The position numbers and the translations under genes were made by a program. Source: Xenococcaceae cyanobacterium (GTDB taxonomy: Bacteria; Cyanobacteriota; Cyanobacteriia; Cyanobacteriales; JBFRWF01). Taken from it: a stretch of DNA of 44,427 nucleotides. This document shows positions 7,663-43,227 of this stretch, one piece after another. Where the stretch lies: the NCBI GenBank assembly GCA_051439465.1, contig JBFRWF010000102.1, forward strand, positions 1 through 44,427, written 5' to 3'. Positions within the stretch are counted from its first letter, which is position 1. Each line of letters begins with the position of its first letter. The notes beneath the pieces were generated by a model. It had not been told where the DNA came from. It did no database searches and worked only from the letters and a program-made list of their open reading frames with translations.

Positions 7663-8916
7663 TCATTTTTTATTATAATATCGAGCAGCTTGCGACCTAT
7701 TAAAATGAAGTAATTTTTCATCTCCTAGCTGCTTTATCCCTGTAGGTTTGACTGGTTTCACCCCGAGAGAATTTAGTATTTCCCTAGCAACTGCTTTCCC
7801 TAAAAGTGGGGGGACAGAATTTCCGACTTGCCGAAATCCGTGCCATTTGGTAACATGAAATCTAAACCAATCGGGATAGGAGTGTAGCCGCGCTGCTTCC
7901 CGCACAGTAATACAACGCGGTCTTTCTGGATGAATCGGTCTTGGAGAAGTGTAAGCACCGCGATTAGTATCTGTTCCCGCCCTGAGAGTGTTGCATAACC
8001 CTTCGGTAGATAGCCGATAAAATCGACTTGTTTCCTCTCTTTTTCCCGGCTCTGTATGAGAAAATCTTTGAATAGATTGAGGAGTATGTTTTGTTCGCTT
8101 ACTTGAGGTGAGCATACTATAATTGTAATAGCGATCGTAGGAGTAATCATCCTCAAAAGAGTAAAGACCGCGCATTTGTCCAGCATAATAACTTGGGTTT
8201 CCATACTCTGTTATTACCCAGTCTCTTTCCAGTAGTTCTGGGTAATTCTCAACTTCCGGTAGGTCGCCAATTGCTTCCGAAACTGTCGGAGTTATAGGAA
8301 GGGTTAAGCTGTCAGTACTGTTTAAATCTGGTTGAGTCAGAGGTTGGGGATATTTGGGTAAGTTAAGACCTTCTCTACATCCGAGCAGAAATAACCTTTC
8401 CCGGTTCTGAGGGACTCCATAATAAGCAGCATTAAGGACTTGATAGTTCTCCTCGACTTCATAACCGTTGGCTCTAAAAGAGCTGATTATTTCTTTAAGA
8501 AACTGCTGATGTTTTCCGATGGCGATTCCTGGGACATTCTCCATCACAAAGAACTTAGGTTGTAGCTCCAATGCCAAGCGCATGAAGTGAAAGACAAGGG
8601 AATTCAGAGGATCGTCGAGGTGGCGTTTTCCCATCAGGGAAAAGCCCTGACAAGGTGGACCGCCAAAGACAACATCAATCTTGCGATCGCCAATTAAAGA
8701 CAAGTTCCTAATTTCTTCCCCTGTCGTATCAGTAACACTCCTGCACAAAATAGACCAGAAGGGAAAGTTAAACTCATGAGTAGCACAGTGGATCGGATCG
8801 AGTTCCACCGCAGCCAGCACGTTAAACCCTGCTTGTTCAAAGCCGAGAGTCATTCCGCCTGCGCCAGCAAATAAATCTACAGCGATTGGTCTTTTCTTGC
8901 TTTTCCCTCTAGCCAT
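7663..8916 (-). CDS. dcm: DNA (cytosine-5)-methyltransferase. Solitary: no adjacent restriction endonuclease
   Basis: Canonical C5-MTase motifs are present: I (DLFAGAGGMTLGF), IV (GGPPCQGFS), VI (ENV), VIII (QNRERLFLLG), X (GNSVPPLL). The last 9 codons (AARYYNKK) are encoded by a partial copy of the 180-bp repeat head. Confidence 0.9.
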   Translation of the reverse strand: MARGKSKKRPIAVDLFAGAGGMTLGFEQAGFNVLAAVELDPIHCATHEFNFPFWSILCRSVTDTTGEEIRNLSLIGDRKIDVVFGGPPCQGFSLMGKRHLDDPLNSLVFHFMRLALELQPKFFVMENVPGIAIGKHQQFLKEIISSFRANGYEVEENYQVLNAAYYGVPQNRERLFLLGCREGLNLPKYPQPLTQPDLNSTDSLTLPITPTVSEAIGDLPEVENYPELLERDWVITEYGNPSYYAGQMRGLYSFEDDYSYDRYYNYSMLTSSKRTKHTPQSIQRFSHTEPGKREETSRFYRLSTEGLCNTLRAGTDTNRGAYTSPRPIHPERPRCITVREAARLHSYPDWFRFHVTKWHGFRQVGNSVPPLLGKAVAREILNSLGVKPVKPTGIKQLGDEKLLHFNRSQAARYYNKK

Positions 8917-9003
8917 AGCTTGACAATGTTAAATTAGAACAAATGTCCTGAAATATCAGCTCCTTGGTAGGTTTACCTTGTCCTAACGGCGAGAATCTGA
9001 CCA

Positions 9004-9189
9004 GGGATTGGTGATTGGCGATCCGACGCGCAGAAATCTTCGACCGACGCGCAGAAATCTTCGATTTCGAGCATCGTCGAGCATCGTCGAGCATCGCAGT
9101 TATCCGACCCGCAGAAATCTTTGATTTCGAGCATCGCAGTGATTGGGAAGAGGGTAAAGTTATAAGTCCCCAATTCCCAATCACCCCCC
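9004..9189. repeat. Composite repeat block bounded by inverted repeats (gggattggtgattgg ... ccaattcccaatcaccc). It holds direct repeats (cgcagaaatcttcga x2 plus a variant, gagcatcgtc x3)
   Basis: Direct reading of 9004-9189. It sits in the 5' region of the minus-strand C5-MTase (start 8916) and downstream of xthA. Confidence 0.7.
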
Positions 9190-9336
9190 TGAGCGAAAAG
9201 TAGAACGTATGTATTAATCTAACATTGTCAAGATAGTATCTCAAAAAGAATTGATCGGTGTTGCAGGCGATCGGCTCCTGGTTAGTAGTTGCGTTTTACT
9301 GCGAGAAGACAATAAAGTGCAACTACGAACATAAAT

Positions 9337-10125
9337 TTAAAACTCCACGATTACAGGAGCGTGATCGCTGGGTTTGGTAAGTTTTCTTGGCGCTATGTCA
9401 ATCTTACAGCTAGTTGCTCCCTCGTAAAGGTTAGGGGTGAGGTAGTGATGATCAATTCGCCACCCCCGGTTGCGTCTGAAGCCACCAGCGCGATAGTCCC
9501 ACCAACTGAAGTATCCTCCCTCGGAAGTAAACTTACGGAAAGCATCCTTTAAGCCTACCTCTAACACTACCTGTAAAGCTTCCCGTTCAAGGGGAGAAGA
9601 CATGATATGTGTTTCCTTGTCTTTAGGGTCGTAAATATCCTTATCTTCTAAGGCAATGTTAAAATCCCCACAGATACACATTTCTCCTGGTGGTTTGTCC
9701 CTTAGGACTTGCAGATATTCCCGCAGCACTTTCAACCAGCGGAGTTTGTAGTCATATTTATCGCTACCAATAGCGGAGCCGTTGGGAACATAAAGGTTGA
9801 CGATGTGCGCATCCCCAATTATACCAGTGATGACCCGCTTTTGTTCGTCGAAATCCCCCGCCAAGCGATCGCCCACAATTGCTGCAAAGCCAGTGCTGAC
9901 ATTCTCCATTGGTGTGCGACTGAAAATAGCCACGCCGTTGTAAGCTTTTTGTCCAGAAATATAGAGATGATAACCCAGTTGCTCAAAAGGGGTTCTGGGG
10001 AAATCTCGATCTATCACCTTGGTTTCTTGCAAGCAGAGGACATCTACAGGATTATCCTGCAACCAGTCCGCCACCTGCTGCTGGCGAGTGCGAATTGAGT
10101 TAACATTCCAGGTTGCAACTTTCAT
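9337..10125 (-). CDS. xthA: Exodeoxyribonuclease III (AP endonuclease, Xth family)
   Basis: MKVATWNVNSIRTRQQQVADWLQ...VLCLQETKV...NIALEDKDIYDP...PSDHAPVIVEF. These are typical ExoIII/APE1-family motifs over the full 262 aa. Confidence 0.9.
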   Translation of the reverse strand: MKVATWNVNSIRTRQQQVADWLQDNPVDVLCLQETKVIDRDFPRTPFEQLGYHLYISGQKAYNGVAIFSRTPMENVSTGFAAIVGDRLAGDFDEQKRVITGIIGDAHIVNLYVPNGSAIGSDKYDYKLRWLKVLREYLQVLRDKPPGEMCICGDFNIALEDKDIYDPKDKETHIMSSPLEREALQVVLEVGLKDAFRKFTSEGGYFSWWDYRAGGFRRNRGWRIDHHYLTPNLYEGATSCKIDIAPRKLTKPSDHAPVIVEF

Positions 10126-22653: not shown

Positions 22654-24321
22654 ATGACTAAGTCACCTGATGCACCTAATACAGCCGAGAATTTTAAGAA
22701 GTCCTTCTCGGTTCTACTGAAGGCTCGGTATCCATACCTTTATATTTCAACCTGGGAAGAAGAGCGAGTCCTGGCATTAATCCAGGAAGTGGTCAGAACT
22801 GCGGCTCTCATTCGCACGCCCCGCAAGCTATTTACCTGGAGCGTCACTGAAGGGATTGTTGAAAATGGGCAGCGTAATAATCAAAAGACCGATCCCTTTA
22901 AAATCCTTGATTTTATTGATGCTCATCAAGAGGCATCTGTGTTTGTGCTCAAAGACTTTCACATTTATCTAGGTACGCGACAAGTTGCTGTGAGAGAGAG
23001 TTTGACTGAACCCTCCCTCATAATTCGTAAACTCAGAGATCTCGTTCCCAATCTCACTAAGAGTAACAAACCCAAAAATGTGGTGTTTGTTTCACCCTCT
23101 TTGGTATTACCTGCTGACCTAGAAAAAGATATCACTATCGTAGACTTTGATTTACCGAGTTTCCCAGAAATCCAACAGAAGCTGCAGGAAATCATTGACA
23201 CAAACCGTCAAGGAGGCCGGATTGTTATCAAACTGAATCCTGAGGAGGAGGAACGTTTAGCTAAGGCTGCAACAGGCTTGACATTGCAAGAAGCAGAAAA
23301 TGCGTTTGCCCGTGCGATGGCTGAAGATGGTCGATTAGATAACCAATCCGTTGGGCGGATTTTGCAAGAAAAACGCCAGATCATCAAAAAAATGGAGATT
23401 CTTGAGTTTATCCCACCGGAATTGACAATGCAGGATGTTGGTGGGCTAGAAAATCTCAAAAACTGGTTTAGGAAGCGCGAGAGGGTTTGGTTGGGGGCAG
23501 CACAACGCTATGGTTTATCAGCTCCTAAGGGAGTATTAATTACAGGGGTACCCGGTTGTGGAAAAAGCTTAATTGCTAAAGCAATCAGCACAATGTGGCA
23601 GTTGCCATTGCTCCGGCTTGATGTCGGTCGAATTTTTGGCGGCTTAGTAGGGAGTAGTGAAGAGAATATGCGTCGGGCAATTAAGACTGCAGAAGCCACA
23701 GCTCCTTCTATCTTATGGATTGACGAAATTGAGAAAGGGTTTAGTGGTGATGGGCGTGGAGATAGTGGCACATCAATGCGAGTGTTTGGTACCTTCCTGA
23801 CATGGATGCAGGAGAAAACTAAGCCTGTGTTTGTGGTGGCAACGGCTAATAAGATTCATGCCCTTCCTCCCGAATTTCTACGTAAGGGGCGGTTTGACGA
23901 AATCTTCTTTGTGGATTTGCCTACTCGCAAGGAACGTATCGAGATTCTTAGACTGCATATTACCAAGCGGGTTGATCCAACAATGATGGAAGGATTTCAA
24001 CTAACACAGCAGGTACTTGAGTATTTAGCCAAGTCTACTGAAGGGTTTATTGGTGCAGAACTGGAGCAAGTCGTAGTAGCAGGGCTATTTGAAGCATTTT
24101 CTGAAGGCCGAGGTCTACGTATTGAAGACTTTGTCAAAGCCGTTAAAAATATGGTGCCCCTTTCTGTAACTCAAGTTGAAGCAATTCGGCACATTCGAGA
24201 ATGGGCCAATGAACGTGCTGTGGCGGCAACTCCTAAGGAAGACCGGATTGAGTATGCTCAGTCCACAGAATCTAAAGCAGATGTCAAGGCAACGCGAGGA
24301 GGACGGGCTGTAGATTTCTGA
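22654..24321 (+). CDS. AAA+ ATPase (CDC48/FtsH-like ATPase module with a distinct N-terminal domain). Resembles the stress-induced cyanobacterial slr0374-type ATPase
   Basis: Walker [16 protein letters not shown], Walker [10 protein letters not shown], second region of homology [28 protein letters not shown]. It is followed by two small conserved ORFs, as in the slr0373-0374-0376 arrangement. The latter comparison is from memory and is not verified. Confidence 0.8.
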
Positions 24322-26447: not shown

Positions 26448-28862
26448 ATGGTAGAGCATGAGGATATCTGGATTGAGGCGGCACTGAATCTAACTTCATC
26501 TGGCCTCGCAGATCTTTTGAAAAAGCTTCCACCTTCTAGGATGCAGAAGCTAGCAATAGAGGCTGCTAGCGGAAATAACTTACAAATGCGGGTTTATGGA
26601 TTGACGCTGGTTAGCCAAGATCATGCTGTGGGAGGAGATCCTCAAATAGGGCTGTTCCTGGCCAAATTGGGTATGCGGCTTTGTATGCAGTGTTTTGAAC
26701 GGCAGGGTTCTGGTCCCGCTGATACCTTCGTGTTTGGGGTGAGTCAATTTGCTTTGAATGCTAATAGGAGCTGGCATAGATTAGATGAGCATCAGCAACA
26801 GTTGGCAGTTATTGATGATACCTTAGCTTGGTTATCCCAACGGAAAGCTAAGGCAGTCTATTCCAAGGATCTAAAATTTGCCAGAGTCGGGGTTCTGATT
26901 GAGCTAGACAGACCGGAAGAAGCGTACGAAGCACTCAATGATGCCCGTAATGAATTCGATCGGACTCGCCAAGAACTTGATAAAGAGGATCGTGAAACAT
27001 TGAAGAAGCATTTTTTGGATCCAATTCTGGATGAGCGTATCAGTGAACGGTTGCTTCCTGCTACTAAACTTAAAGATCGTGATGATACAAACAAGAAAGC
27101 CAATGACAGTCAGCGTAATATGCTCCGAACTGTACTCGGCAATCTTTCGTCCATAGAATCAAAATTTGAGAACCTTTTCGAATCCCTGCAACAACAGCTT
27201 AGCAATGAGCCAACACCGGTATCTCCTACAGAAACCATCAAACAAGCAAACCTTTCCTACGATAGGATTAGCCAATTTTTAGAGGGTCAAGCAGGCGGCT
27301 CTGGCCCTGAGTATCGTCTGAAATCCACGATTCAGAGGGTATCAGCTGTTTTAGCTGATGAGCAGCAAGGACATGATCTACAGACGCTACGAGAATCACA
27401 ACAAACCCTTGAAAGTGTCCGTAAGGAGGCTGGGTCTCAGCAATTTTCTGATATTGTTGAGCAGACCCTATGGCCCCTGTACCTTTGTTATAAGCGTCTT
27501 GGTAAGCGTAAATCTGGTTTTGAAGTTCTCCAAGAAATTCGCCGTTGTGTCCGAGAACGTCGCAAGCAAATATTGGATCCGTTGAAACGGGCATATGTTG
27601 CGCAGCAATACCCTTACCTTTATTTTGCGCTTTGTGAATACTTAATCCAAGATGACAATCCCACTGAACTGCTCTCTGTAATCGAAGAGGCCAAGGGACG
27701 GGTCCTGGCTGATATGGTGGAAAGCCATGCTGCACAGGCACAGATTCCTACATTACCAGGGCAGGCAGCTGACTGGTTACCAGATCATATGAAAAGTCTC
27801 GGTGCCCATTATGTAACCTTCCTGGTTGATGCGGATAAAACCTATGCAGTTTTGCTTGGACGGGATGCCAGCATACATATGGCTGAATTGCCTATCGGGG
27901 AAGCTCAGCTTCACAGGCTTAGACACTGTCTCGATCCATCACTTTGGGGTAAGCGGATTGATTGGTTTGACACTTATCCTACAGATGTTGTGCAGCAGCT
28001 CTCTCCCTTAACGAGTTGGCTCCAGCCAATGGTTCACAGTGGATTACTCCGTCAGGGCGATCATATCTGTTATGCCCCGGATGGGATATTACATCTCGTG
28101 CCGCTCCACTACGTTGATTTCTGTGGGAAACCGCTAATAGAGATGTTCTCATTGTCACGAACCCACTGTGCTTTGCTCTTGTGGGAGTCTACTCGTGAAC
28201 CTGTCAGAAGCCTTGACCATAGTGTGGCCGTTAAAGTGCCAACGATCGATGAGTTTAAAGAGCAACCTGAGAAGGTGGCAAAGCTTGCCCTTGCACCAAA
28301 ATGGCTGGCTGAACATAGAAGAGCCGAGATTTTAGAAGACACAAATGCTGACCTATCAGCTTTAGCAAACATGACACTAAGCAGCAGCATCATCCACTTT
28401 GCAACCCATGGTACGTTTACTCCTGGACAGAATCCTTTTTATCACTCCGGTCTTCTGCTAGCCATCAATGGAGAGTTTCCTAACAAAAATGGATCCAGGG
28501 AATTGCTATCACCAGAGCGGGTAATGGAACAAGGAAATAAGTTTAATTTTCGTGGTTCGCACGTTACGCTTCAGGCCTGTGTTTCTGGTTTGTCTGAAGA
28601 GGGGGCTGGAGGTGATGCCCTTGGCCTTGAATGGAGTCTTCTGATAGCAGGAGCAAGTAGTATCCTCTCTTCCCATTGGGATGTGTCAGTTCATGCCTCA
28701 TCTGACTTCAGTGTGCGGTTTTATGAAAACTGGCTTGAGCAGGGGATGAGTCGCGCCAGTGCTTGGCGAAACGCTTGCTTAAGCCTGATGAGTGACGATC
28801 CTTTTCAAGGAGAAAACGTAGACAAGTGGGCAGCATTTAGCCTGGCTGGTGACTGGCGTTAA
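26448..28862 (+). CDS. CHAT-domain protein (caspase-like His/Cys protease fold) with a large alpha-helical N-terminal region
   Basis: The C-terminal ~250 aa have the CHAT catalytic dyad context (SIIHFATHGTF ... HVTLQACVSGLSEEG ... LLIAGASSILSSHWDVS). The N-terminal ~550 aa are helical with no named domain. Confidence 0.8.
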   Translation: MVEHEDIWIEAALNLTSSGLADLLKKLPPSRMQKLAIEAASGNNLQMRVYGLTLVSQDHAVGGDPQIGLFLAKLGMRLCMQCFERQGSGPADTFVFGVSQFALNANRSWHRLDEHQQQLAVIDDTLAWLSQRKAKAVYSKDLKFARVGVLIELDRPEEAYEALNDARNEFDRTRQELDKEDRETLKKHFLDPILDERISERLLPATKLKDRDDTNKKANDSQRNMLRTVLGNLSSIESKFENLFESLQQQLSNEPTPVSPTETIKQANLSYDRISQFLEGQAGGSGPEYRLKSTIQRVSAVLADEQQGHDLQTLRESQQTLESVRKEAGSQQFSDIVEQTLWPLYLCYKRLGKRKSGFEVLQEIRRCVRERRKQILDPLKRAYVAQQYPYLYFALCEYLIQDDNPTELLSVIEEAKGRVLADMVESHAAQAQIPTLPGQAADWLPDHMKSLGAHYVTFLVDADKTYAVLLGRDASIHMAELPIGEAQLHRLRHCLDPSLWGKRIDWFDTYPTDVVQQLSPLTSWLQPMVHSGLLRQGDHICYAPDGILHLVPLHYVDFCGKPLIEMFSLSRTHCALLLWESTREPVRSLDHSVAVKVPTIDEFKEQPEKVAKLALAPKWLAEHRRAEILEDTNADLSALANMTLSSSIIHFATHGTFTPGQNPFYHSGLLLAINGEFPNKNGSRELLSPERVMEQGNKFNFRGSHVTLQACVSGLSEEGAGGDALGLEWSLLIAGASSILSSHWDVSVHASSDFSVRFYENWLEQGMSRASAWRNACLSLMSDDPFQGENVDKWAAFSLAGDWR

Positions 28863-34898: not shown

Positions 34899-37800
34899 AT
34901 GAAAAATTTCAGTAGTCCAGAACAAAAGTTAGAACAGCAGCGCTCAACCTCAAGTCATAAGTCACCACAAGAGCGTGTAGATGAATGGATTTCTGGTAGC
35001 GCGGTAAGTCCAGAACTGACCGAAAAATGGCTAGAGCAGCAGTCCGACAAAAAGGAGATCGCCCGCCTGCTAGCCTGGAAATATTACAGTCACACTCCTG
35101 GCTGGTACGTGCGCTCTTGCGATCCACACACGGGAATGCGTGGGGATTTTGGACAATTCAAGCCAGACTCACCGCTTCAATTCCCCGACTCTGACAAGCC
35201 CTGTAAATACTTCACTTTCCCCAAAGGCAGGGGGACAGAGGCAATCTACAGCGTGATGACGCTTAACGAGTGGATCTCAATCAGCGAGCGGGTTGGGGTA
35301 GACATAGAAACCAAGGACATTGATGAATCCCGCGATGATTTAGGTTTCTGGCGTTGGGTAATGAATCACCCTGAGATTCCCATAATCATTACTGAGGGAG
35401 TTAAGAAACAGGGTTGTCTGCTAACTTGGGGGTGGGTGGCGATCGCCCTTACCGGAGTATGGAACGGACAGCAAAAGCGCAAACTGCACCCGTCCCTTAA
35501 ACCTTTCATTGTGCCTGGACGCGTAGTTTATGCTTGCTTTGATGCCGATGTGGTAGTCAAGGTCGAGGTAGAACGCGCCCTCAAGGTTTTTGGGCAGGTC
35601 GTCCGGCGCGAAGGTGCCTCAGTTTTTATTATTAACTGGAATTTAGAACTGGGCAAGGGCTGCGATGACTTGATTGTCAATGAAGGCTATAATTCATTTG
35701 AAGAGGCTCTCCATAATGCCACCCCTTATAGTGAATGGCTCAAGTCTCTCAAAACTGAACAGCCCAAGAAAAAAGGCTCACTGGTAGCTGCTGATGTTAT
35801 TGGTGGCAGCGGCGGTGGTAATAACAACGGTAATGGTGGTGGTGGGAACAATGGCGGTGATGGCTCTGGTGGCGATCGCTCCCGAGAGAACAACGAGAAA
35901 AAGAATCCAGAATGGCGCTATAAAAATGTTGCCGACGCACTAGAACTGCCTTTTTCTGATTGCGTTACTGCTGGAAGCTTCGATGGGTATGTCTACCGAG
36001 AAATATTTGGGGCCGGAACTGAAAATTGGGCAGCGATCGACACTGCCTTTTACCACAACACAGAGCAGGGCTACTGGCAGCATCAGGAAGATAAATTCAT
36101 TCACAAACTGATCTGCGATGCCTCCCAAAAGGCTTACAAGCTCAAATCCTCGAAATTAGAGGGCTGGTGGGCTACCTACCCCTACGAAACAAACAGCTCG
36201 TCCGAGTCTGCCTTTAAGTTTGTTCGCAAGCGCTTGGAGTTAGATAACTTACCGTCCAATGTACATTTGAGGGCATTCAATAATTGTACCGTGGATATGA
36301 GGACGGGTCAAACCATGCTCCACGACCCCGCCCATTTCCTAACTAGCCAGGTTCCTTACGATTACTACCCTAACCGTCCATGTCCTGAGAATTTCTACAA
36401 CTTTATTTGTAGTTCCTTCGGGGAAGATTTACTCTGTGTCATCCGGGCGTTTACCTCAATGTTTCTAGATCCGACGGCTCCCTATGGGCGATTTCCTCAT
36501 CTGTTTGGGCCATCAGGTTCAGGTAAGGGAGTGATGGGGCGATTGTGGAGTTCTATGTATGGAACCGTAGGCTCGGCTTCCCTGGCCAGTTTCGAGGAGC
36601 TGGCATCTGCAGAAGGACGGCATCAGTACCTCACTGGGAAATCTATCTGCGGCATTCCCGATGTCGGCGGTTATGTCAAGGGACTACGCGCTTTCTACGA
36701 GCTTATAGACAATGGTGAGATGTCGGGCCGGGCACTGTTTAACCCTACTGGCTATCAGAAGCTTTGGAATATGCGTTTCTGGGTGGCTTCTGTTGACCAC
36801 CTGCAAATTGAGAACGCCGGGGATGGTTGGGCTCGCCGCGCATACCCCATTCCTACTAAGGGCAAGCCAGATAATGTTGACCCCAACTTGAGGGTGAAGT
36901 TAGAAGCAGAGATAGGAGACATTATTTCATGGGCTTTGGCTATGCCCAGAGAAGAGCGCGATCGCATTCTTTTGGGTGAGCCCACCAACTCTCGAGTCAT
37001 CAATGCCATCACTGATGCCGCTCTCTACGGTGACAGTACTAAGAGCTTTGTCGATCTGTGCCTGCGCCCTTCTGACAATCCTGGCAATGTTCCCAATCAC
37101 ATGCTGCACTCCTGGTATGTCGCCTACTGCGACAAGCACGGCTATACACCGATGGGGATGTCCAAGTTCATCTCCCACCTCAAAACCATCCTGCCGAAAA
37201 ACCATGTCCAGCGCGGTTGGTCGCCAATGACTAATGGCAAGCGCTCACAGGTTTCGGCTCACTGGGAATATATTGTATCTCTTCGGGGGGCTCTTGTAAC
37301 TATAAACAATGGTGCTGACAACGGCTATCAGGGTTCAGCTAATCAAGAGCCCGAGTGGAAGTGCATGAAATCTAAATGTGTGGAAGGAGGGTTATTTGAG
37401 TTTGAGGATTTTTGGAATCCACCAGAACCACCTGGGCCACCTCAACCACCTCAGCCACCTCAGCCACCTGAACCTGATGATGGTGGTCCCGGCGGTGGTG
37501 GTCCTGATAATAACCCTCCGACTGCCGATCCTGCTCCAGATTCGGATTCAAAATCGCCAGAACCACCTAGCAGTAAGGGTGTGCAGGGTGTACATGCTGT
37601 ACAGGGCAGCTCAGAAAATCCCGAATCGCTGAAACAACGCAGTGGTGCGGGTGTGCAGGGTGTGCAGGGTGGATCGCACAGAGATCCGGACTTTGAAAAA
37701 ATATCAGTAGCTGTTGTAGAAAAAAATGAGGTGGCGCAAACAGTAGAAAGGGTAGAAAGCCCCCTGTCCACCCCTGTACAGTTACCAGTTACCAGTTATC

Positions 37801-38948
37801 AGTTGCCAGTTGGCAGTAATCAGTTAGCAGTTGACAGTAATCAGTTAGCAGTTGAAAAGTCAGATAACGAACCTTCTTCAGTTACCAGTTACCAGTTACC
37901 AGTTACCAGTGAGACTCCCGACTCTGACGGAGTTCCGAATTCAGAGAAGGTAGATTCAACTGTGTCCCACGGTGACAAGACTTCAGATAACCAACCTTCT
38001 TCAGTTACCAGTGACCAGTTATCAGTGACCAGTGAGACTCCCGACTCTGACGGAGTTGCTCATTCAGAGTTGGTAGACCCCACTAAAAACCAGGTAACTG
38101 GTAACTGTTCACTGGTAACTGAAGAGGTAACTGGTAACTGTTCACTGGTCACTGAAAAGGTAACTGGTAACTGTTCACTGGTCACTGAAAAAGAGCTGGT
38201 AACTGATTACTCCACTTATCCGCATCTAACCAGCAATGATGTCCGAGCTTGTCGAAACCGGGCTAGTCGGTGCAAAAATCAGATGCTTGCCTGTACTAAC
38301 CGAGATGAGCTGGCAGAATTTCGAGCTAGTGCTGGATTCTCTCAGAGTGAGATTGATTGGGTTTGGGAAAGGCTAACTGACAGTGAAAAGTTTGGCGTAC
38401 ATAAAGCGGTTAAGCAAGAGCAGCTAACTTTACCGGGTTTTGAGAAATCTGAAAATGGTAACTGGGAACAGGTCACTGAAGAGGTAACGGGTAACTGGGA
38501 ACTGGTAACTGAAACTGAGCAAACTGCTCCGGTGTCAGAGTCAACTGAAAATGCCTCAACTGACCCAGAACAGATTGAAAGTACCGACGAGATATTCTCA
38601 TGGAACGAGGTAATTGAAGATATGAACCAGCACCTGAAGCTACTTTGTTGGAGAAAGGCTGACGGTTCTGCTTATCTCCAGCACAAGTACAACTTGAATT
38701 GCTGCCCTAATTTAAGCGAGTCAGAAATGTCTGAGTTCTATAAATTCCAGACTGAACGCTTGGCGGGATATAAGGTAGGCGACCGCGCGATTGTTGAGAA
38801 TTATGACCCAAAACTAAATGGTCGGGTAGCAGAGGTGGTATCAGTCGAACCTGGCAACATCATTAAAGTTCAGTTTGATCACAACCGCCGAAAGATGCAC
38901 ATAGAAATTGCACTTTACGTAACACTCTTCTACGGAAAAACTCAATGA
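34899..38948 (+). CDS. Plasmid-type replication protein: N-terminal TOPRIM-like (DUF3854) domain plus P4-family primase C-terminal NTPase domain (cyanobacterial CyRepA-like), with a ~400-aa STRR-derived low-complexity insert
   Basis: TOPRIM-like acidic motifs IIITEGVKKQGCLLTWGWVAIALTGVWNG and VVYACFDADVV. Walker A FGPSGSGKGVMGRLW in a P4-primase-like C-terminal domain. Low-complexity blocks follow (GGSGGGNNNGNGGGGNNGGDGSGG; PPEPPGPPQPPQPPQPPEP; VTSYQLPVTSYQLPV; VTGNCSLVTEEVTGNCSLVTEK) before a conserved C-terminal ~120 aa. RBS GGAGAGGAGAG. Confidence 0.75.
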   Translation: MKNFSSPEQKLEQQRSTSSHKSPQERVDEWISGSAVSPELTEKWLEQQSDKKEIARLLAWKYYSHTPGWYVRSCDPHTGMRGDFGQFKPDSPLQFPDSDKPCKYFTFPKGRGTEAIYSVMTLNEWISISERVGVDIETKDIDESRDDLGFWRWVMNHPEIPIIITEGVKKQGCLLTWGWVAIALTGVWNGQQKRKLHPSLKPFIVPGRVVYACFDADVVVKVEVERALKVFGQVVRREGASVFIINWNLELGKGCDDLIVNEGYNSFEEALHNATPYSEWLKSLKTEQPKKKGSLVAADVIGGSGGGNNNGNGGGGNNGGDGSGGDRSRENNEKKNPEWRYKNVADALELPFSDCVTAGSFDGYVYREIFGAGTENWAAIDTAFYHNTEQGYWQHQEDKFIHKLICDASQKAYKLKSSKLEGWWATYPYETNSSSESAFKFVRKRLELDNLPSNVHLRAFNNCTVDMRTGQTMLHDPAHFLTSQVPYDYYPNRPCPENFYNFICSSFGEDLLCVIRAFTSMFLDPTAPYGRFPHLFGPSGSGKGVMGRLWSSMYGTVGSASLASFEELASAEGRHQYLTGKSICGIPDVGGYVKGLRAFYELIDNGEMSGRALFNPTGYQKLWNMRFWVASVDHLQIENAGDGWARRAYPIPTKGKPDNVDPNLRVKLEAEIGDIISWALAMPREERDRILLGEPTNSRVINAITDAALYGDSTKSFVDLCLRPSDNPGNVPNHMLHSWYVAYCDKHGYTPMGMSKFISHLKTILPKNHVQRGWSPMTNGKRSQVSAHWEYIVSLRGALVTINNGADNGYQGSANQEPEWKCMKSKCVEGGLFEFEDFWNPPEPPGPPQPPQPPQPPEPDDGGPGGGGPDNNPPTADPAPDSDSKSPEPPSSKGVQGVHAVQGSSENPESLKQRSGAGVQGVQGGSHRDPDFEKISVAVVEKNEVAQTVERVESPLSTPVQLPVTSYQLPVGSNQLAVDSNQLAVEKSDNEPSSVTSYQLPVTSETPDSDGVPNSEKVDSTVSHGDKTSDNQPSSVTSDQLSVTSETPDSDGVAHSELVDPTKNQVTGNCSLVTEEVTGNCSLVTEKVTGNCSLVTEKELVTDYSTYPHLTSNDVRACRNRASRCKNQMLACTNRDELAEFRASAGFSQSEIDWVWERLTDSEKFGVHKAVKQEQLTLPGFEKSENGNWEQVTEEVTGNWELVTETEQTAPVSESTENASTDPEQIESTDEIFSWNEVIEDMNQHLKLLCWRKADGSAYLQHKYNLNCCPNLSESEMSEFYKFQTERLAGYKVGDRAIVENYDPKLNGRVAEVVSVEPGNIIKVQFDHNRRKMHIEIALYVTLFYGKTQ

Positions 38949-38964
38949 AACCCGATCAATCATT

Positions 38965-40299
38965 ATGCTTAGACAACTCGATTTGTGCTCAGGAGTCGGA
39001 GCAGGATTCCCCCTTGCAGGGTTCAAACTCGGAGGTTTTGAACTGCTCGGTCTCTGCGAAATTGACCCCTACTGCCAAGACATCCTCGGTAAACGATTCC
39101 CCGAAGTTACAATCTTCAAAGATGTCCAAGAACTTAAAGAAGGCGGAGTCTACAAATCAGGAGAAATCGATATTATCACAGCCAGCCCACCTTGCCAGCC
39201 CTTCTCAGTCCAAGGGAAACGGCTCGGAGCTGACGACGAAAGAGACTGCATACCCGCAGTCATGGAAGCGATCGCAAGCATTAAGCCTAGATTCTTTGCA
39301 ATTGAGCAAGTGCCAGGGCTGCTTACGTGCCCTTTCAAACCCGGATACGGTTCAGGCTCCTACTTCAAAATCCTACTCGGAGCCATTTTCGAGTGCGGGT
39401 ATGGGGTGGAATGGCAAAATATTGGATCAGGAAACTTTTCCTCTCCCTTCCCTAGAAGAAGGTTACTGCTGGTTGGCGTCTCCAACAGCGTTAAGCTCGA
39501 CTGGGAACTCCCGACCCCCTGGGCTGAGCAAGTTAGAAAGTCAGTTGAAGGAAATGGTAGTCCTAAAATCAGGGGAGTGCTTGAATCCGAGGTGGCTAGA
39601 AGTTTGGTTGGGTATGCCGCTGAACTGGCTCAACCCATTGGAATTACGTCCGGCAATGGAGTTGTTAGAAGACAACGTGAAGCAGCAGGAAATTCTCTCG
39701 ACCCAAGAGTTGCTGCGATCGCACTCCAAAGAATCATCTATCTTAATTCGGAAGTGACCAAATACACATCTCAATCCAAAGACAAGCTCCGCCACGACAC
39801 CGACGAATCTCATTCACCTGAACCTGAAAATAATGGTCGGTCACCTTCGGTGCGCCTTCGGCGAGCGCAAGATGATGATTGGCTTGATAATTCTCCAACT
39901 TCTGCTGAATCTAATTCTAGCCCACTGACTGGATCACCTCAACATCAGGAAAGTAAGGAGCGGTCACCTTCGGTGCGCCTACGGCGAGCGCCTGAACTGC
40001 TCCAAGTTAATCCGCACTCACTCAAGCCGCACCCGCGCAATCGGTCGATCTATGGTAAAGACGAAGATATCTCAGACCTGGTAGAGCAGATCCGGCGCAC
40101 TGCATGGATCAAGCCACTTGTGGTGAATAAACAGCACCAGATTATTAGTGGTCATAGGCGCTGGAAAGCAGCACTTGCGCTGGGACTGGAAACTGTTCCT
40201 GTGGAGGTAAGGGAGTTTGAGTCTGAGCTAGATGAACTTGAAGCCTTACTGCTAGAGAACCAATACCGGGAATCGTTCAGCGTTACCAAATGCCTATAA
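38965..40299 (+). CDS. Fusion protein: compact DNA (cytosine-5)-methyltransferase domain (N-terminal ~270 aa) plus a ParB/Srx-like nuclease/NTPase N-terminal domain (C-terminal ~100 aa), joined by a linker with a duplicated ERSPSVRLRRA motif
   Basis: C5-MTase motifs I (DLCSGVGAGF), IV (ASPPCQPFS), VI (IEQVPG), IX-like (RGVLESEVARSLVGY), X (AAGNSLDPRVAAIALQRI). ParB signature in NPHSLKPHPRNRSIYG...LVEQIRRTAWIKPLVVNKQHQIISGHRRWKAALALGLETVPVEV (GxRR box). Confidence 0.75.
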   Translation: MLRQLDLCSGVGAGFPLAGFKLGGFELLGLCEIDPYCQDILGKRFPEVTIFKDVQELKEGGVYKSGEIDIITASPPCQPFSVQGKRLGADDERDCIPAVMEAIASIKPRFFAIEQVPGLLTCPFKPGYGSGSYFKILLGAIFECGYGVEWQNIGSGNFSSPFPRRRLLLVGVSNSVKLDWELPTPWAEQVRKSVEGNGSPKIRGVLESEVARSLVGYAAELAQPIGITSGNGVVRRQREAAGNSLDPRVAAIALQRIIYLNSEVTKYTSQSKDKLRHDTDESHSPEPENNGRSPSVRLRRAQDDDWLDNSPTSAESNSSPLTGSPQHQESKERSPSVRLRRAPELLQVNPHSLKPHPRNRSIYGKDEDISDLVEQIRRTAWIKPLVVNKQHQIISGHRRWKAALALGLETVPVEVREFESELDELEALLLENQYRESFSVTKCL

Positions 40300-40329: not shown

Positions 40330-40845
40330 ATGATGACTAGAGGTAGACCAGCAAAAGTCAAAAAAGAAGATGTAATAGCAGCTTGCGACCAACTTGTTCA
40401 AGAGGGACAGAATGTTACTGTAAAAAATGTCCTGGGGATGGTTGGAGGCTCAGCGAGAGAAGTTTCCCCGATAGTTAGAAAATATAAGGCATCGGCTGGA
40501 ATACCAGAAGCTCTCGAAGATATCGAGAATGATGATAATAATGGTGCTCTATCTGTAACAGAACCAGAAGAGATTGCCGACGTTCAGAAAGAAACAAGTC
40601 ACTCAACATCAATTAATCCACGACAAACCATGTCGGCTCAGGCAAAGGAGCAAGCGCAGTTAGAAGCAGCCCAGCATACTTTGGCCAAGAATTACTTCAT
40701 CGCCACTCAAGATTACGAAACACCTGGGTTAAAAGAGCAGGTTAATCAGGGACTAGAAGAGATATATAAACGTGCTAATGCTGAAATGATGGATAACCTG
40801 TTCCCAAAGGATCTACAGGAAAAACTAAGGACTCCCAAGACGTAA
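40330..40845 (+). CDS. KfrA-N-like DNA-binding protein (plasmid-associated)
   Basis: N-terminus MMTRGRPAKVKKEDVIAACDQLVQEGQNVTVKNVLGMVGGSAREVSPIVRKYK resembles the KfrA N-terminal HTH domain (GRP..VT...V..AAD.L...G..PTV..VR..LGGGS...I.P.L). An acidic/helical tail follows. Confidence 0.5.
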   Translation: MMTRGRPAKVKKEDVIAACDQLVQEGQNVTVKNVLGMVGGSAREVSPIVRKYKASAGIPEALEDIENDDNNGALSVTEPEEIADVQKETSHSTSINPRQTMSAQAKEQAQLEAAQHTLAKNYFIATQDYETPGLKEQVNQGLEEIYKRANAEMMDNLFPKDLQEKLRTPKT

Positions 40846-42354: not shown

Positions 42355-43227
42355 TTACTTCCTCCCTCCGAGGCCACCATAGGAAGGTTTCATCAAAACC
42401 CTGCTAGAAACATAGATAACCATCGCACTAGCACCAAAAAACTGCATCGGATCTCGACCAGCATAGCGATACAGACTTAAAAGCAATATAGGAAGCAGCA
42501 CAAACGGAGTCAAATCAAAAAACCTCTTATGCTCAGGAGGCTTTTTACTCCTAATCCCCAAAAACTTCCCAGCCACCACCTTATTAGCGATCGCCGGACA
42601 ACCCCCAGACTCCTGCTGAAACTGAGCAATTTCAGCCTGACTTAAACTACCACCCCTCTTGCTAGTAGAGGTTTCCATAATATCTTTTATGTCCTCAGCG
42701 GAAAGTGGATCCAATTCCAATGCTGGGAACTTATTCAGAATATCCTTTTCCGGCTGAGTCCGCCCAAACAAAACAATCGGAAAGAAGCGATCGGCAAACA
42801 GAGCTTTCTCATGCTCCTTATTCAACCAGCGTCTCAGGTGAACATTGACGCTAGGGGCATCATCAACAATAAAAAATACTGTTTCCTTTTCCAAGAAATC
42901 GCTTATCTGCTCTTGGAGCATCCTTGACGACATACTTTTTCCATCAAGAGTCTCAGTATCAAGTCCAAGAGTAACAGCCAGCGACTCCATCACATCCCTC
43001 AGAGTTCCTGGTTCAAGCAGCACAGCCAAGAAACCTTGAGATCTTATCTCCTGAATAACAAACTGAGCCAGGGTAGACTTACCATAACCAGCATCACCAA
43101 CAACATAAACACCCTCACCAGCCAGCAAAGAAGCCACTATCCTATCCCGCTCGTTGACACGATAGCATTTCCCAGTAACCTTAGTTAATACTTGCTGAAA
43201 CTCTGCTTCTAAACTAGGCGATCGCAT
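42355..43227 (-). CDS. P-loop NTPase (AAA-like ATPase domain) with C-terminal hydrophobic/TM segments
   Basis: Walker A VVGDAGYGKSTLAQ, Walker B VFFIVDDA, C-terminal TM helix FDLTPFVLLPILLLSLY. Divergent from the YdjM-like gene (36-bp gap). Atypical codon third-position composition (T/G-rich on the coding strand). Confidence 0.6.
   Translation of the reverse strand: MRSPSLEAEFQQVLTKVTGKCYRVNERDRIVASLLAGEGVYVVGDAGYGKSTLAQFVIQEIRSQGFLAVLLEPGTLRDVMESLAVTLGLDTETLDGKSMSSRMLQEQISDFLEKETVFFIVDDAPSVNVHLRRWLNKEHEKALFADRFFPIVLFGRTQPEKDILNKFPALELDPLSAEDIKDIMETSTSKRGGSLSQAEIAQFQQESGGCPAIANKVVAGKFLGIRSKKPPEHKRFFDLTPFVLLPILLLSLYRYAGRDPMQFFGASAMVIYVSSRVLMKPSYGGLGGRK

Follow-up and report, generated by a model that had tools for sequence, protein, structure and literature searches.

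Whether the compact product of one gene can by itself be a complete C5-cytosine methyltransferase is the question raised by an open reading frame (ORF) at 38965..40299 (+ strand) in a stretch of 44,427 nt from a Xenococcaceae cyanobacterium (assembly GCA_051439465.1, contig JBFRWF010000102.1; the whole stretch is called the window here). The ORF runs uninterrupted from ATG to TAA, encodes 444 aa (identical to NCBI protein P0001 from a Xenococcaceae metagenome-assembled genome, MAG) and had been read in a preliminary description as a single-chain methylase with an extremely short target-recognition domain (TRD), fused to a ParB-like domain. The analysis below makes it probable that the C5 methylase has its parts in two overlapping frames of the same strand, which would be read as two chains, and that the ParB part was fused to one of them secondarily. 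The methylase product of the frame that starts at 38965 (frame 0) is called alpha and the product of the +1 frame beta.

According to the ORF list and Pfam, the 444-aa product comprises alpha, a linker and a ParB_N part. DNA_methylase (PF00145) was placed on residues 3-189 (E 1.2e-29) and ParB_N (PF02195) on residues 352-432 (E 2.5e-12, 47.1 bits against a cut-off of 26.3), and NCBIfam gave the same domain picture. The co-occurrence of a C5-methylase core with a ParB/Srx N-domain in one ORF was thereby confirmed, as was the profile check that had been proposed for it. The methylase match covers only positions 2-175 of the 324 in the profile. Motif I is DLCSGVGAGF (residues 6-15; C8, S9, G10, G12, G14 and F15 are invariant in the compact family), motif IV is PPCQPFS (residues 75-81), motif VIII is RRRLLLVG (residues 164-171, R166 invariant) and motif X is AAGNSLDPRV (residues 240-249, G242 and N243 invariant). 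The catalytic cysteine of the PCQ motif, the loss of which in homologs had been named as a refutation, was invariant (C77, 24 homologs). Motif VI reads EQV in the window and ENV in the family, in which N115 is at least 90% conserved, the window being an exception. Among the motifs previously assigned to this frame, I, IV and X stood, VI has the altered form EQV, and the supposed motif IX fell to the level of non-coding sequence (identity 0.35 versus 0.32).

Proteins of 255-300 aa from more than 100 cyanobacterial clusters match residues 1-265 with 40-59% identity, and these compact homologs align end to end in the 38965 frame with motifs I, IV, VI, VIII and X conserved, which indicated that this frame is real. 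Between motifs VIII and X, where enzymes of PF00145 carry a TRD and motif IX, neither was found in the alpha polypeptide. The AlphaFold 2 (AF2) model of the 444-aa ORF was confident at residues 1-200 (with a confident helix at residues 186-197) and 231-280 and poor at residues 201-220 and in the linker, and in Foldseek the alpha model matched only the large domain of M.HhaI, M.HaeIII and DNMT1, over about 190 aligned columns. As modelled, alpha therefore appears to be without the small domain, which in C5 methylases of solved structure makes the contacts to the major groove (PMC3404938).

The missing part was found in the +1 frame of the same DNA. The beta ORF lies at 38945..39757 (+ strand, 270 aa) and is free of stops over all 270 codons. 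It starts 20 nt before alpha, at an ATG that shares two bases with the TGA ending the upstream helicase gene (ATGA). Nine genomic homolog loci were first translated in all frames, and the +1 frame was open over the whole methylase gene in all nine, with the conserved strings SGTMRNG, WLPSPGALS, RPPG..K.E and LNPxFLE..F.LP.GWT.P.E.R. A further 68 metagenome loci were fetched by the alpha N-terminal pattern LCSG[VI]GAGF alone, so that the sample was unbiased as to beta. In 61 unique loci (16,319 codons) there were 8 stops in frame 0, 14 in the +1 frame and 955 in the +2 frame; the other genes of the window gave a +1-frame baseline of 6.0 stops per 100 codons. No +1 stop occurred across alpha in 53/61 loci, and 49/61 had none in either frame. 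Nucleotide composition as the cause of the open +1 frame was ruled out by this 70-fold stop depletion, both against other genes and against the +2 frame. A beta profile from which the window had been left out matched the window in one place only, at 38879-39754 (E 7.6e-40). The preliminary description had noticed a string resembling WLGMPLNW in this frame and dismissed the frame, a decision that has to be reversed in view of the profile match, as +1 is a real coding frame.

The pattern was also found in finished plasmids. The +1 frame is open across the alpha gene in those of Anabaena sp. WA102, Dolichospermum UHCC 0315A, Sphaerospermopsis NIES-73 and Allocoleopsis PCC 7113, and the alpha frame is intact in WA102, UHCC 0315A and PCC 7113 and has one stop in Sphaerospermopsis NIES-73. 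Given that both ORFs occur in plasmids of finished isolates, the split is not a sequencing artefact. The annotations of those plasmids keep one ORF, alpha in some and the long ORF in others. A large protein database contained no more than 14 relatives of the +1 product, because gene callers usually keep alpha.

To locate selection along the gene, mean pairwise amino-acid identity was calculated for each frame in a codon alignment made from 43 sequences that share less than 85% identity. Segment A (38965..39369, + strand, alpha residues 1-135, of which 5-135 were compared in the alignment), which holds motifs I, IV (PCQ) and VI (EQV), is selected in frame 0 only: codon position 3 is least conserved, identities in frames 0, +1 and +2 are 0.54, 0.31 and 0.32, and 8130 codons contain 9 stops in the +1 and 448 in the +2 frame. 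Segment B (39370..39480, +, alpha residues 136-172) is doubly constrained, with all three codon positions about equally conserved, identities of 0.50, 0.44 and 0.35 and 0 +1-frame stops in 2263 codons. In the family consensus the +1 string SGTMRNG...WLPSP lies over the frame-0 string GYDAEW...RERLLLVA (motif VIII); the window has SAGMGWNG...YCWLASP in +1 over CGYGVEW...RRRLLLVG. In segment C (39481..39648, +, alpha residues 173-228) the +1 frame is selected (RPPG..K.E ... LNPRWLEVWLGMPLNW ... E.R.A) and frame 0 is an open spacer. The least conserved position there is position 1 of frame 0, which is position 3 of the +1 frame, identities are 0.35, 0.55 and 0.32, and 3855 codons contain 1, 1 and 276 stops in frames 0, +1 and +2, respectively. 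In segment D (39649..39756, +, alpha residues 229-264), which carries motif X (RRQREAAGNSLDPRVAAIALQRI), selection is again in frame 0, with position 3 least conserved and identities of 0.60, 0.35 and 0.30. Conservation of the +1 frame as a by-product of frame 0 was rejected, since in segment C frame 0 is at background and its position 1 is the most variable.

Both frames are thus open over about 800 nt, each is selected only in its own segments, and the selected segments follow the canonical order (I-VIII, TRD/IX, X). About 60 independent loci from cyanobacterial plasmids, genomes and metagenomes show this two-frame pattern. The order of alpha N-terminus (frame 0), beta (+1) and motif X (frame 0) was seen in all loci that have a match to alpha 1-140 together with the other two parts, except L129, in which an indel moves the alpha N-terminus out of register with the other two.

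The "short TRD with motif IX" of frame 0 is therefore an unselected read-through spacer of 56 residues, as its identity in segment C is at the non-coding level. This bears directly on the proposal that the ORF is a single-chain compact C5 methylase with a minimal TRD, in which ParB gives targeting or nicking. The proposal has in its favor the intact 444-aa ORF with both Pfam domains, the occurrence in cyanobacteria of canonical C5 methylases fused to ParB of this very subfamily, and the helix that AF2 predicts at residues 186-197. It is set against a frame-0 TRD/IX segment that is no better conserved than non-coding sequence in exactly the place where the TRD-like and motif IX-like parts of the +1 frame are under purifying selection, and against a Pfam methylase match that breaks off at profile position 175. 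The 60 other alpha genes end 1-19 codons after motif X and have no ParB, and the ParB fragment in the window, being 3'-truncated, lacks a helix-turn-helix (HTH) and hence any evident sequence-specific DNA-binding part. We regard such a one-chain enzyme as very improbable, and the idea that ParB takes the place of a TRD is not supported either.

A single chain could also be made by two programmed frameshifts, +1 after motif VIII and -1 before motif X, which would rebuild a canonical enzyme. The order of the selected segments is exactly what this predicts, and the proteins P0100, P0112 and P0113 are natural chimeras in which frame 0 is joined to the +1 frame. Such shifting would leave without need the openness of frame 0 through segment C and of the +1 frame through segments A and D and far beyond; that both frames stay open even where their sequence is not selected fits two full-length translations rather than a double frameshift. 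Furthermore, at residues 136-172 the +1 string SGTMRNG...WLPSP is stacked on motif VIII of frame 0 and no single chain can hold both, no conserved slippery heptamer was present at either boundary, and beta continues into other domains in 49/61 loci. A double frameshift is accordingly a highly unlikely explanation.

The selected part of beta was compared with known methylases to see what it resembles. The motif IX-like string LNPRWLEVWLGMPLNW lies at 39581..39628 (+ strand, +1 frame) and was identified by hhalign, BLASTP and AF2. With hhalign, the beta profile matched a profile of 26 canonical TRD-IX-X proteins (probability 89.7%, E 1.8e-6) on LNPDWVEWLMGxPxGWTD, and also matched P0206 (E 7.9e-5), a canonical C5 methylase related to the N-terminal half of alpha that has in a single frame WPTP repeats, then LNPDWVEWLMGFPQGWT and then LGNAVVP. 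In BLASTP, the beta of locus L007 aligned with P0274 over LKTxQxSL...SGTMRNG...WPxP (E 1e-5) and the window beta aligned with the same protein in the motif IX part (E 0.001), and phrog_1008 ("DNA methyltransferase") weakly matched 3/10 betas. The AF2 model of beta was disordered at residues 1-190 and reached a predicted local distance difference test (pLDDT) score of 73-89 at residues 190-250 only. Judged from these comparisons, the N-terminal ~150 aa of beta are probably disordered read-through and its C-terminal part is TRD-like and motif IX-like.

In the two-frame reading alpha would supply the core that binds S-adenosylmethionine (AdoMet) and catalyses transfer (motifs I, IV, VI and VIII), followed by a spacer and then motif X. 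Beta would be read-through over the first ~135 codons of alpha, followed by a TRD-like segment (SGTMRNG...WLPSP...RPPG) and a motif IX-like helix (LNPxFLE..P.GW). Beta would be translated by coupling to the helicase stop through the ATGA overlap and alpha from its own ATG, and the two chains would assemble into a heterodimeric methylase similar to M.EcoHK31I or M.AquI.

The two frames might alternatively be translated and yet serve independent functions, with alpha active alone, perhaps with low specificity, and the +1 product in another role, so that the overlap merely saves space. Consistent with this, beta is intact in 6/61 loci where alpha has stops, it has no significant match to any Pfam methylase model, and stand-alone TRD-IX-X proteins are common in databases. 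What speaks against independence is that the selected part of beta is homologous to TRD/IX, exactly what alpha lacks, that the alpha model has no small domain of the kind that contacts the major groove (PMC3404938), and that the overlap is conserved without exception, though an unlinked arrangement would be easier to evolve. We consider independent functions unlikely.

Several observations weigh against the two-chain enzyme and should be set beside the evidence for it. Translation of both frames and formation of a heterodimer are what we infer from sequence. Pfam gave no match for the +1 products encoded in the window and in two relatives, a search of PDB sequences with the beta profile returned chance matches only (E at least 0.18), the homology of beta to TRD/motif IX rests on alignments of 26-70 residues, and AF2 was confident over only about 60 residues of beta, the model of which found nothing in Foldseek. 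Several relatives have stops in one frame and three (P0100, P0112 and P0113, mentioned above) join both frames, as does a fourth frame-joined chimera, P0129; some copies in the family do decay. The window copy itself deviates at conserved positions, in alpha by ENV to EQV and D147G and in beta in 3/22 conserved columns, including SGTMRNG to SAGMGWNG, and may be less active or decaying. Finally, since canonical C5 methylases occur fused to ParB of this subfamily, alpha::ParB_N could be adaptive and not an accident.

In most relatives the +1 ORF is much longer than the gene it overlaps. It reaches at least 50 codons upstream of alpha in 48/61 loci and at least 100 codons downstream in 49/61, and these extended ORFs encode 400-1350 aa with Pfam matches to Dam (PF05869), D12 adenine methylase (PF02086), ASCH, DUF3102 or ParB-like domains. 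Their domain content makes them polyvalent proteins as PMC5512222 uses the term. Alpha ends 1-19 codons after motif X in all 60 other loci. The window beta is a short form (270 aa), and the extra domain is there on alpha only. Our view, which we hold somewhat less firmly than the two-frame reading itself, is that a catalytic chain of ~265 codons is nested in a polyvalent multi-methylase gene that supplies TRD/IX, that this arrangement is conserved on cyanobacterial plasmids, hidden by annotation and apparently undescribed, and that the nested chain in the window captured a ParB/Srx domain.

Some further features of the relatives were recorded. Many alpha start codons are preceded by GAGGA, read "FLEE" in the +1 frame. 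The junction sequence GAAAATTTCTTAGAGGAA, read "ENFLEE" in the +1 polyprotein, recurs near alpha in L004-L007, L100, L110, L153 and L155 with its GAGGA 5-10 nt upstream of the alpha ATG; it recurs also between downstream modules, sometimes in tandem (for example TEKFLEKNLDTEEL, repeated in Anabaena WA102), and might act as an internal ribosome-binding site or as a point of module shuffling. The string "GCLYKYLENKKLKDGRIASYPRV...HWRWG.NWEEK.DGEWKGRS" is a conserved C-terminal module of the +1 ORFs in L005-L007 and L153-L155 and of many beta polyproteins, with no Pfam match in L005, the sole such ORF scanned, and related "GNGYIHWR...YYHWKENGKK..KYIPK" repeats lie at the C-terminus of the +1 ORF in L156. 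P0122 (612 aa) is an alpha-type methylase with a Hint/intein-like insertion inside motif IV, between PPC and QPFS. No family member was present in viral contigs and there was no sign of phage carriage. Separately, 615 database proteins have a WPTP-repeat TRD, LNPDWVEWLMG..GWTD and LGNxxVPQ (motifs IX and X), and all but one of the best 120 of these 615 (P0269-P0388) were without a Pfam methylase match; C5 methylases with a C-terminal half encoded on its own, split as in M.AquI, may thus be common, or else mis-called genes may be.

The remaining part of the ORF is specific to the window. The alpha frame runs on past motif X for 178 codons, compared with at most 19 in the other 60 loci, through a linker into the ParB/Srx N-terminal domain (40018..40260, + strand). 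This domain has the boxes ISGHRRWKAAL and LLLENQYRE, the GHRR at 40150-40161 agreeing with the GxRR box described earlier and ENQYRE standing at the end. BLASTP aligned residues 306-436 of the ORF, at 55% identity, with residues 11-143 of P0114, a 482-aa cyanobacterial "ParB/RepB/Spo0J family partition protein". The ORF ends 8 residues past ENQYRE and the homologs P0114-P0119 run 250-400 aa further; the HTH and C-terminal dimerisation domains of partition-type ParB are not present after the window N-domain, and the TIGR00180 score of the ORF is below its cut-off. The AF2 model of the ParB part was poor, the alignment holding 7 sequences only. By comparison with these homologs the ParB part is a 3'-truncated fragment of a plasmid ParB-like protein of 400-545 aa. 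The stand-alone relatives of P0114 adjoin DUF3987/D5-type replication genes.

The linker (39757..40017, +) is predicted to be disordered (pLDDT <50 at residues 295-367), and from 39880 on it has its counterpart by homology in the N-terminal extension that ParB-like proteins carry when they stand alone (residue 306 corresponds to residue 11 of P0114). The ERSPSVRLRRA motif reported to be duplicated in it was traced to a 43-nt direct repeat, found by a repeat search of the window (2 copies against 0 expected), with copy 1 at 39826..39868 (+) and copy 2, 88% identical and in frame 123 nt downstream, at 39949..39991 (+). Each copy contains two adjacent 11-nt hairpins with a TTC loop, CACCTTCGGTG and CGCCTTCGGCG. 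The repeat core was not found in 152 related loci checked; a recombination scar, a binding site and a small mobile repeat are candidate roles.

In the two-frame reading, the window alone would have an alpha frame that continues through the linker into an N-domain derived from the 5' end of a plasmid ParB-like gene, and this alpha::ParB_N fusion would be a recent secondary event of doubtful function, possibly a one-base frame switch from an ancestral beta::ParB. The same observations raise the possibility that the junction is a one-base assembly error or a fresh mutation near 39746-39770 in the MAG contig, the true or ancestral state being an alpha that stops soon after motif X and a ParB_N that is on beta or is a truncated pseudogene; this is compatible with the split methylase. 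The window is the sole locus of 61 in which frame 0 runs on and one of four in which the +1 frame stops inside segment D, a ParB-like domain is in the +1 frame in L012 and L092, one base restored just after 39746 puts the linker and ParB_N in the beta frame (beta::linker::ParB_N) with alpha ending ~25 codons later, and the source is a MAG. On the other side, three other loci have a short beta that ends within or just before the end of alpha, and alpha ends normally there; the frame-0 linker is open for 80 codons ahead of the ParB domain; and independent canonical methylase::ParB fusions show that such an architecture can be selected. An error or fresh mutation at this point is a real possibility, though we think it less likely than not. 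The ParB fusion is the least secure part of the locus and is not to be taken at face value.

The ParB-methylase fusions described before are N6 (adenine) methylases, usually with ParB at the N-terminus, whereas in the window a C5 methylase is followed by a C-terminal ParB; what the amino-methylase fusions (B. cereus Bce_0392) and polyvalent proteins share with the window is that ParB/Srx is joined to methylases in mobile elements. The window is not unique in joining ParB to a C5 methylase, as RefSeq cyanobacteria contain canonical C5 methylase::ParB fusions (range 720-1003 aa), including WP_348239206.1 of Trichocoleus sp. Lan (839 aa) and WP_190987100.1 and WP_190684525.1 of Coleofasciculus. 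They have the same order of methylase, linker and ParB and the same ParB subfamily (HPRN...IISGHRRW.AAL.LGLETVPVE...LLLEN), but their methylase is single-frame (Pfam positions 4-323 of 324) and their ParB is full-length, extending ~330 aa past the N-domain, whereas the window has a frame-split alpha and the N-domain only. The junction residue also differs, and the fusions must therefore be independent events. The sole listed homolog with both Pfam domains, P0116, is a piece of another methylase, a canonical one, that is joined to ParB. Nucleotide binding or DNA nicking has been reported for the ParB-methylase Bce_0392, as cited in PMC5512222, and by analogy the truncated ParB/Srx domain might bind a nucleotide or nick DNA, but it is more likely a remnant.

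Two-chain C5 methylases are known from M.AquI and M.EcoHK31I (PMC3404938), and the beta chain of M.EcoHK31I is encoded in another frame of alpha (PMC2836561). M.EcoHK31I is a heterodimeric C5 methylase (YGGCCR) and was compared with the window family by description, not by sequence. In both, a second polypeptide is encoded in another frame of the same DNA (here +1, open and selected, 61 loci), and the second chain has motif IX (in the window family by the hhalign match given above) while the first has I-VIII and X. They differ in that M.EcoHK31I has a small beta wholly inside alpha and its TRD in alpha, whereas in the window family TRD-like strings are in beta, the overlap spans the whole alpha gene (~800 nt) and alpha is in most loci nested inside a multi-domain beta ORF of 400-1350 aa; moreover, M.EcoHK31I is a single enzyme and the window family is widespread in cyanobacteria. 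M.AquI of Agmenellum quadruplicatum is a cyanobacterial C5 methylase that is split in the variable region and whose two chains must combine (PMC3404938). Its motifs I-VIII and IX-X are encoded consecutively, whereas in the window family motif X stays with the catalytic chain and the genes fully overlap in different frames. The words "frameshift" and "overlapping" were not found in the paper on polyvalent proteins (PMC5512222), and a literature search gave nothing relevant on overlapping or frame-split cytosine methylases in cyanobacteria or on C5 methylase-ParB fusions. The principle thus has one precedent, M.EcoHK31I, from which the family differs in the whole-gene overlap, the reversed nesting, the TRD in the second frame, the polyvalent embedding and the wide conservation.

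The neighbors of the ORF make up a plasmid replication and maintenance module. Upstream, at 34899..38948 (+), is a primase-helicase, a plasmid replication protein with Pfam matches to DUF3854 (Toprim-like), D5_N and Pox_D5, and downstream, at 40330..40845 (+), a KfrA_N-type plasmid DNA-binding protein (Pfam KfrA_N, E 3e-7). The ORF has no gene for a restriction enzyme next to it, and no ParA/CbiA-type match was found among the window ORFs scanned with Pfam (mostly at least 100 aa). The proposed enzyme would be an orphan protective (anti-restriction) methylase of the plasmid; polyvalent proteins probably serve to protect incoming DNA at an early stage (PMC5512222).

Other features were noted in passing. 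In the primase-helicase, the D5 part is separated by a long insert of low complexity and many repeats (PQPPQPPQPP, three copies of VTGNCSLVTE, repeated SYQLPV and SDGV) from a KOW-like "KVGDR" module at the C-terminus, which is also present in ParB homologs and beta ORFs. The gene at 4478-7177 (+) encodes 899 aa with four Vault repeat families and the major vault protein (MVP) shoulder domain (E 5e-70), and by these matches its product appears to be a bacterial homolog of the eukaryotic MVP, which is unusual on a contig that is likely a cyanobacterial plasmid. A second C5 methylase at 7663-8916 (-) is canonical and single-frame (417 aa, matching positions 4-323 of the 324 in the Pfam profile); after it come a 110-aa product without a Pfam match (8909-9244, -) and an endonuclease/exonuclease/phosphatase-family protein (9337-10125, -); together, 7663-10125 may form a restriction-modification or repair module. 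A CHAT-domain protein (26448-28862, +), an AAA ATPase (22654-24321, +) and an AAA_22/NACHT-like ATPase (42355-43227, -) are possible conflict or defence genes.

In bacteria, long same-strand gene overlaps with selection acting on both frames are very rare, and their existence is often doubted. The approximately 60 independent loci provide a clean and testable case of an ~800-nt overlap in which each product appears to make up half of the same enzyme. Because annotation pipelines report only one gene of the pair, the "compact C5 methylases" of the databases have probably been wrongly described as whole enzymes. The family also offers a heterodimeric scaffold of natural origin, a kind that has served in engineering targeted methylases (PMC2836561). 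If the two-frame reading is true, the single textbook example M.EcoHK31I would extend to a whole family, and split methylases would be linked to the polyvalent anti-restriction proteins of plasmids.

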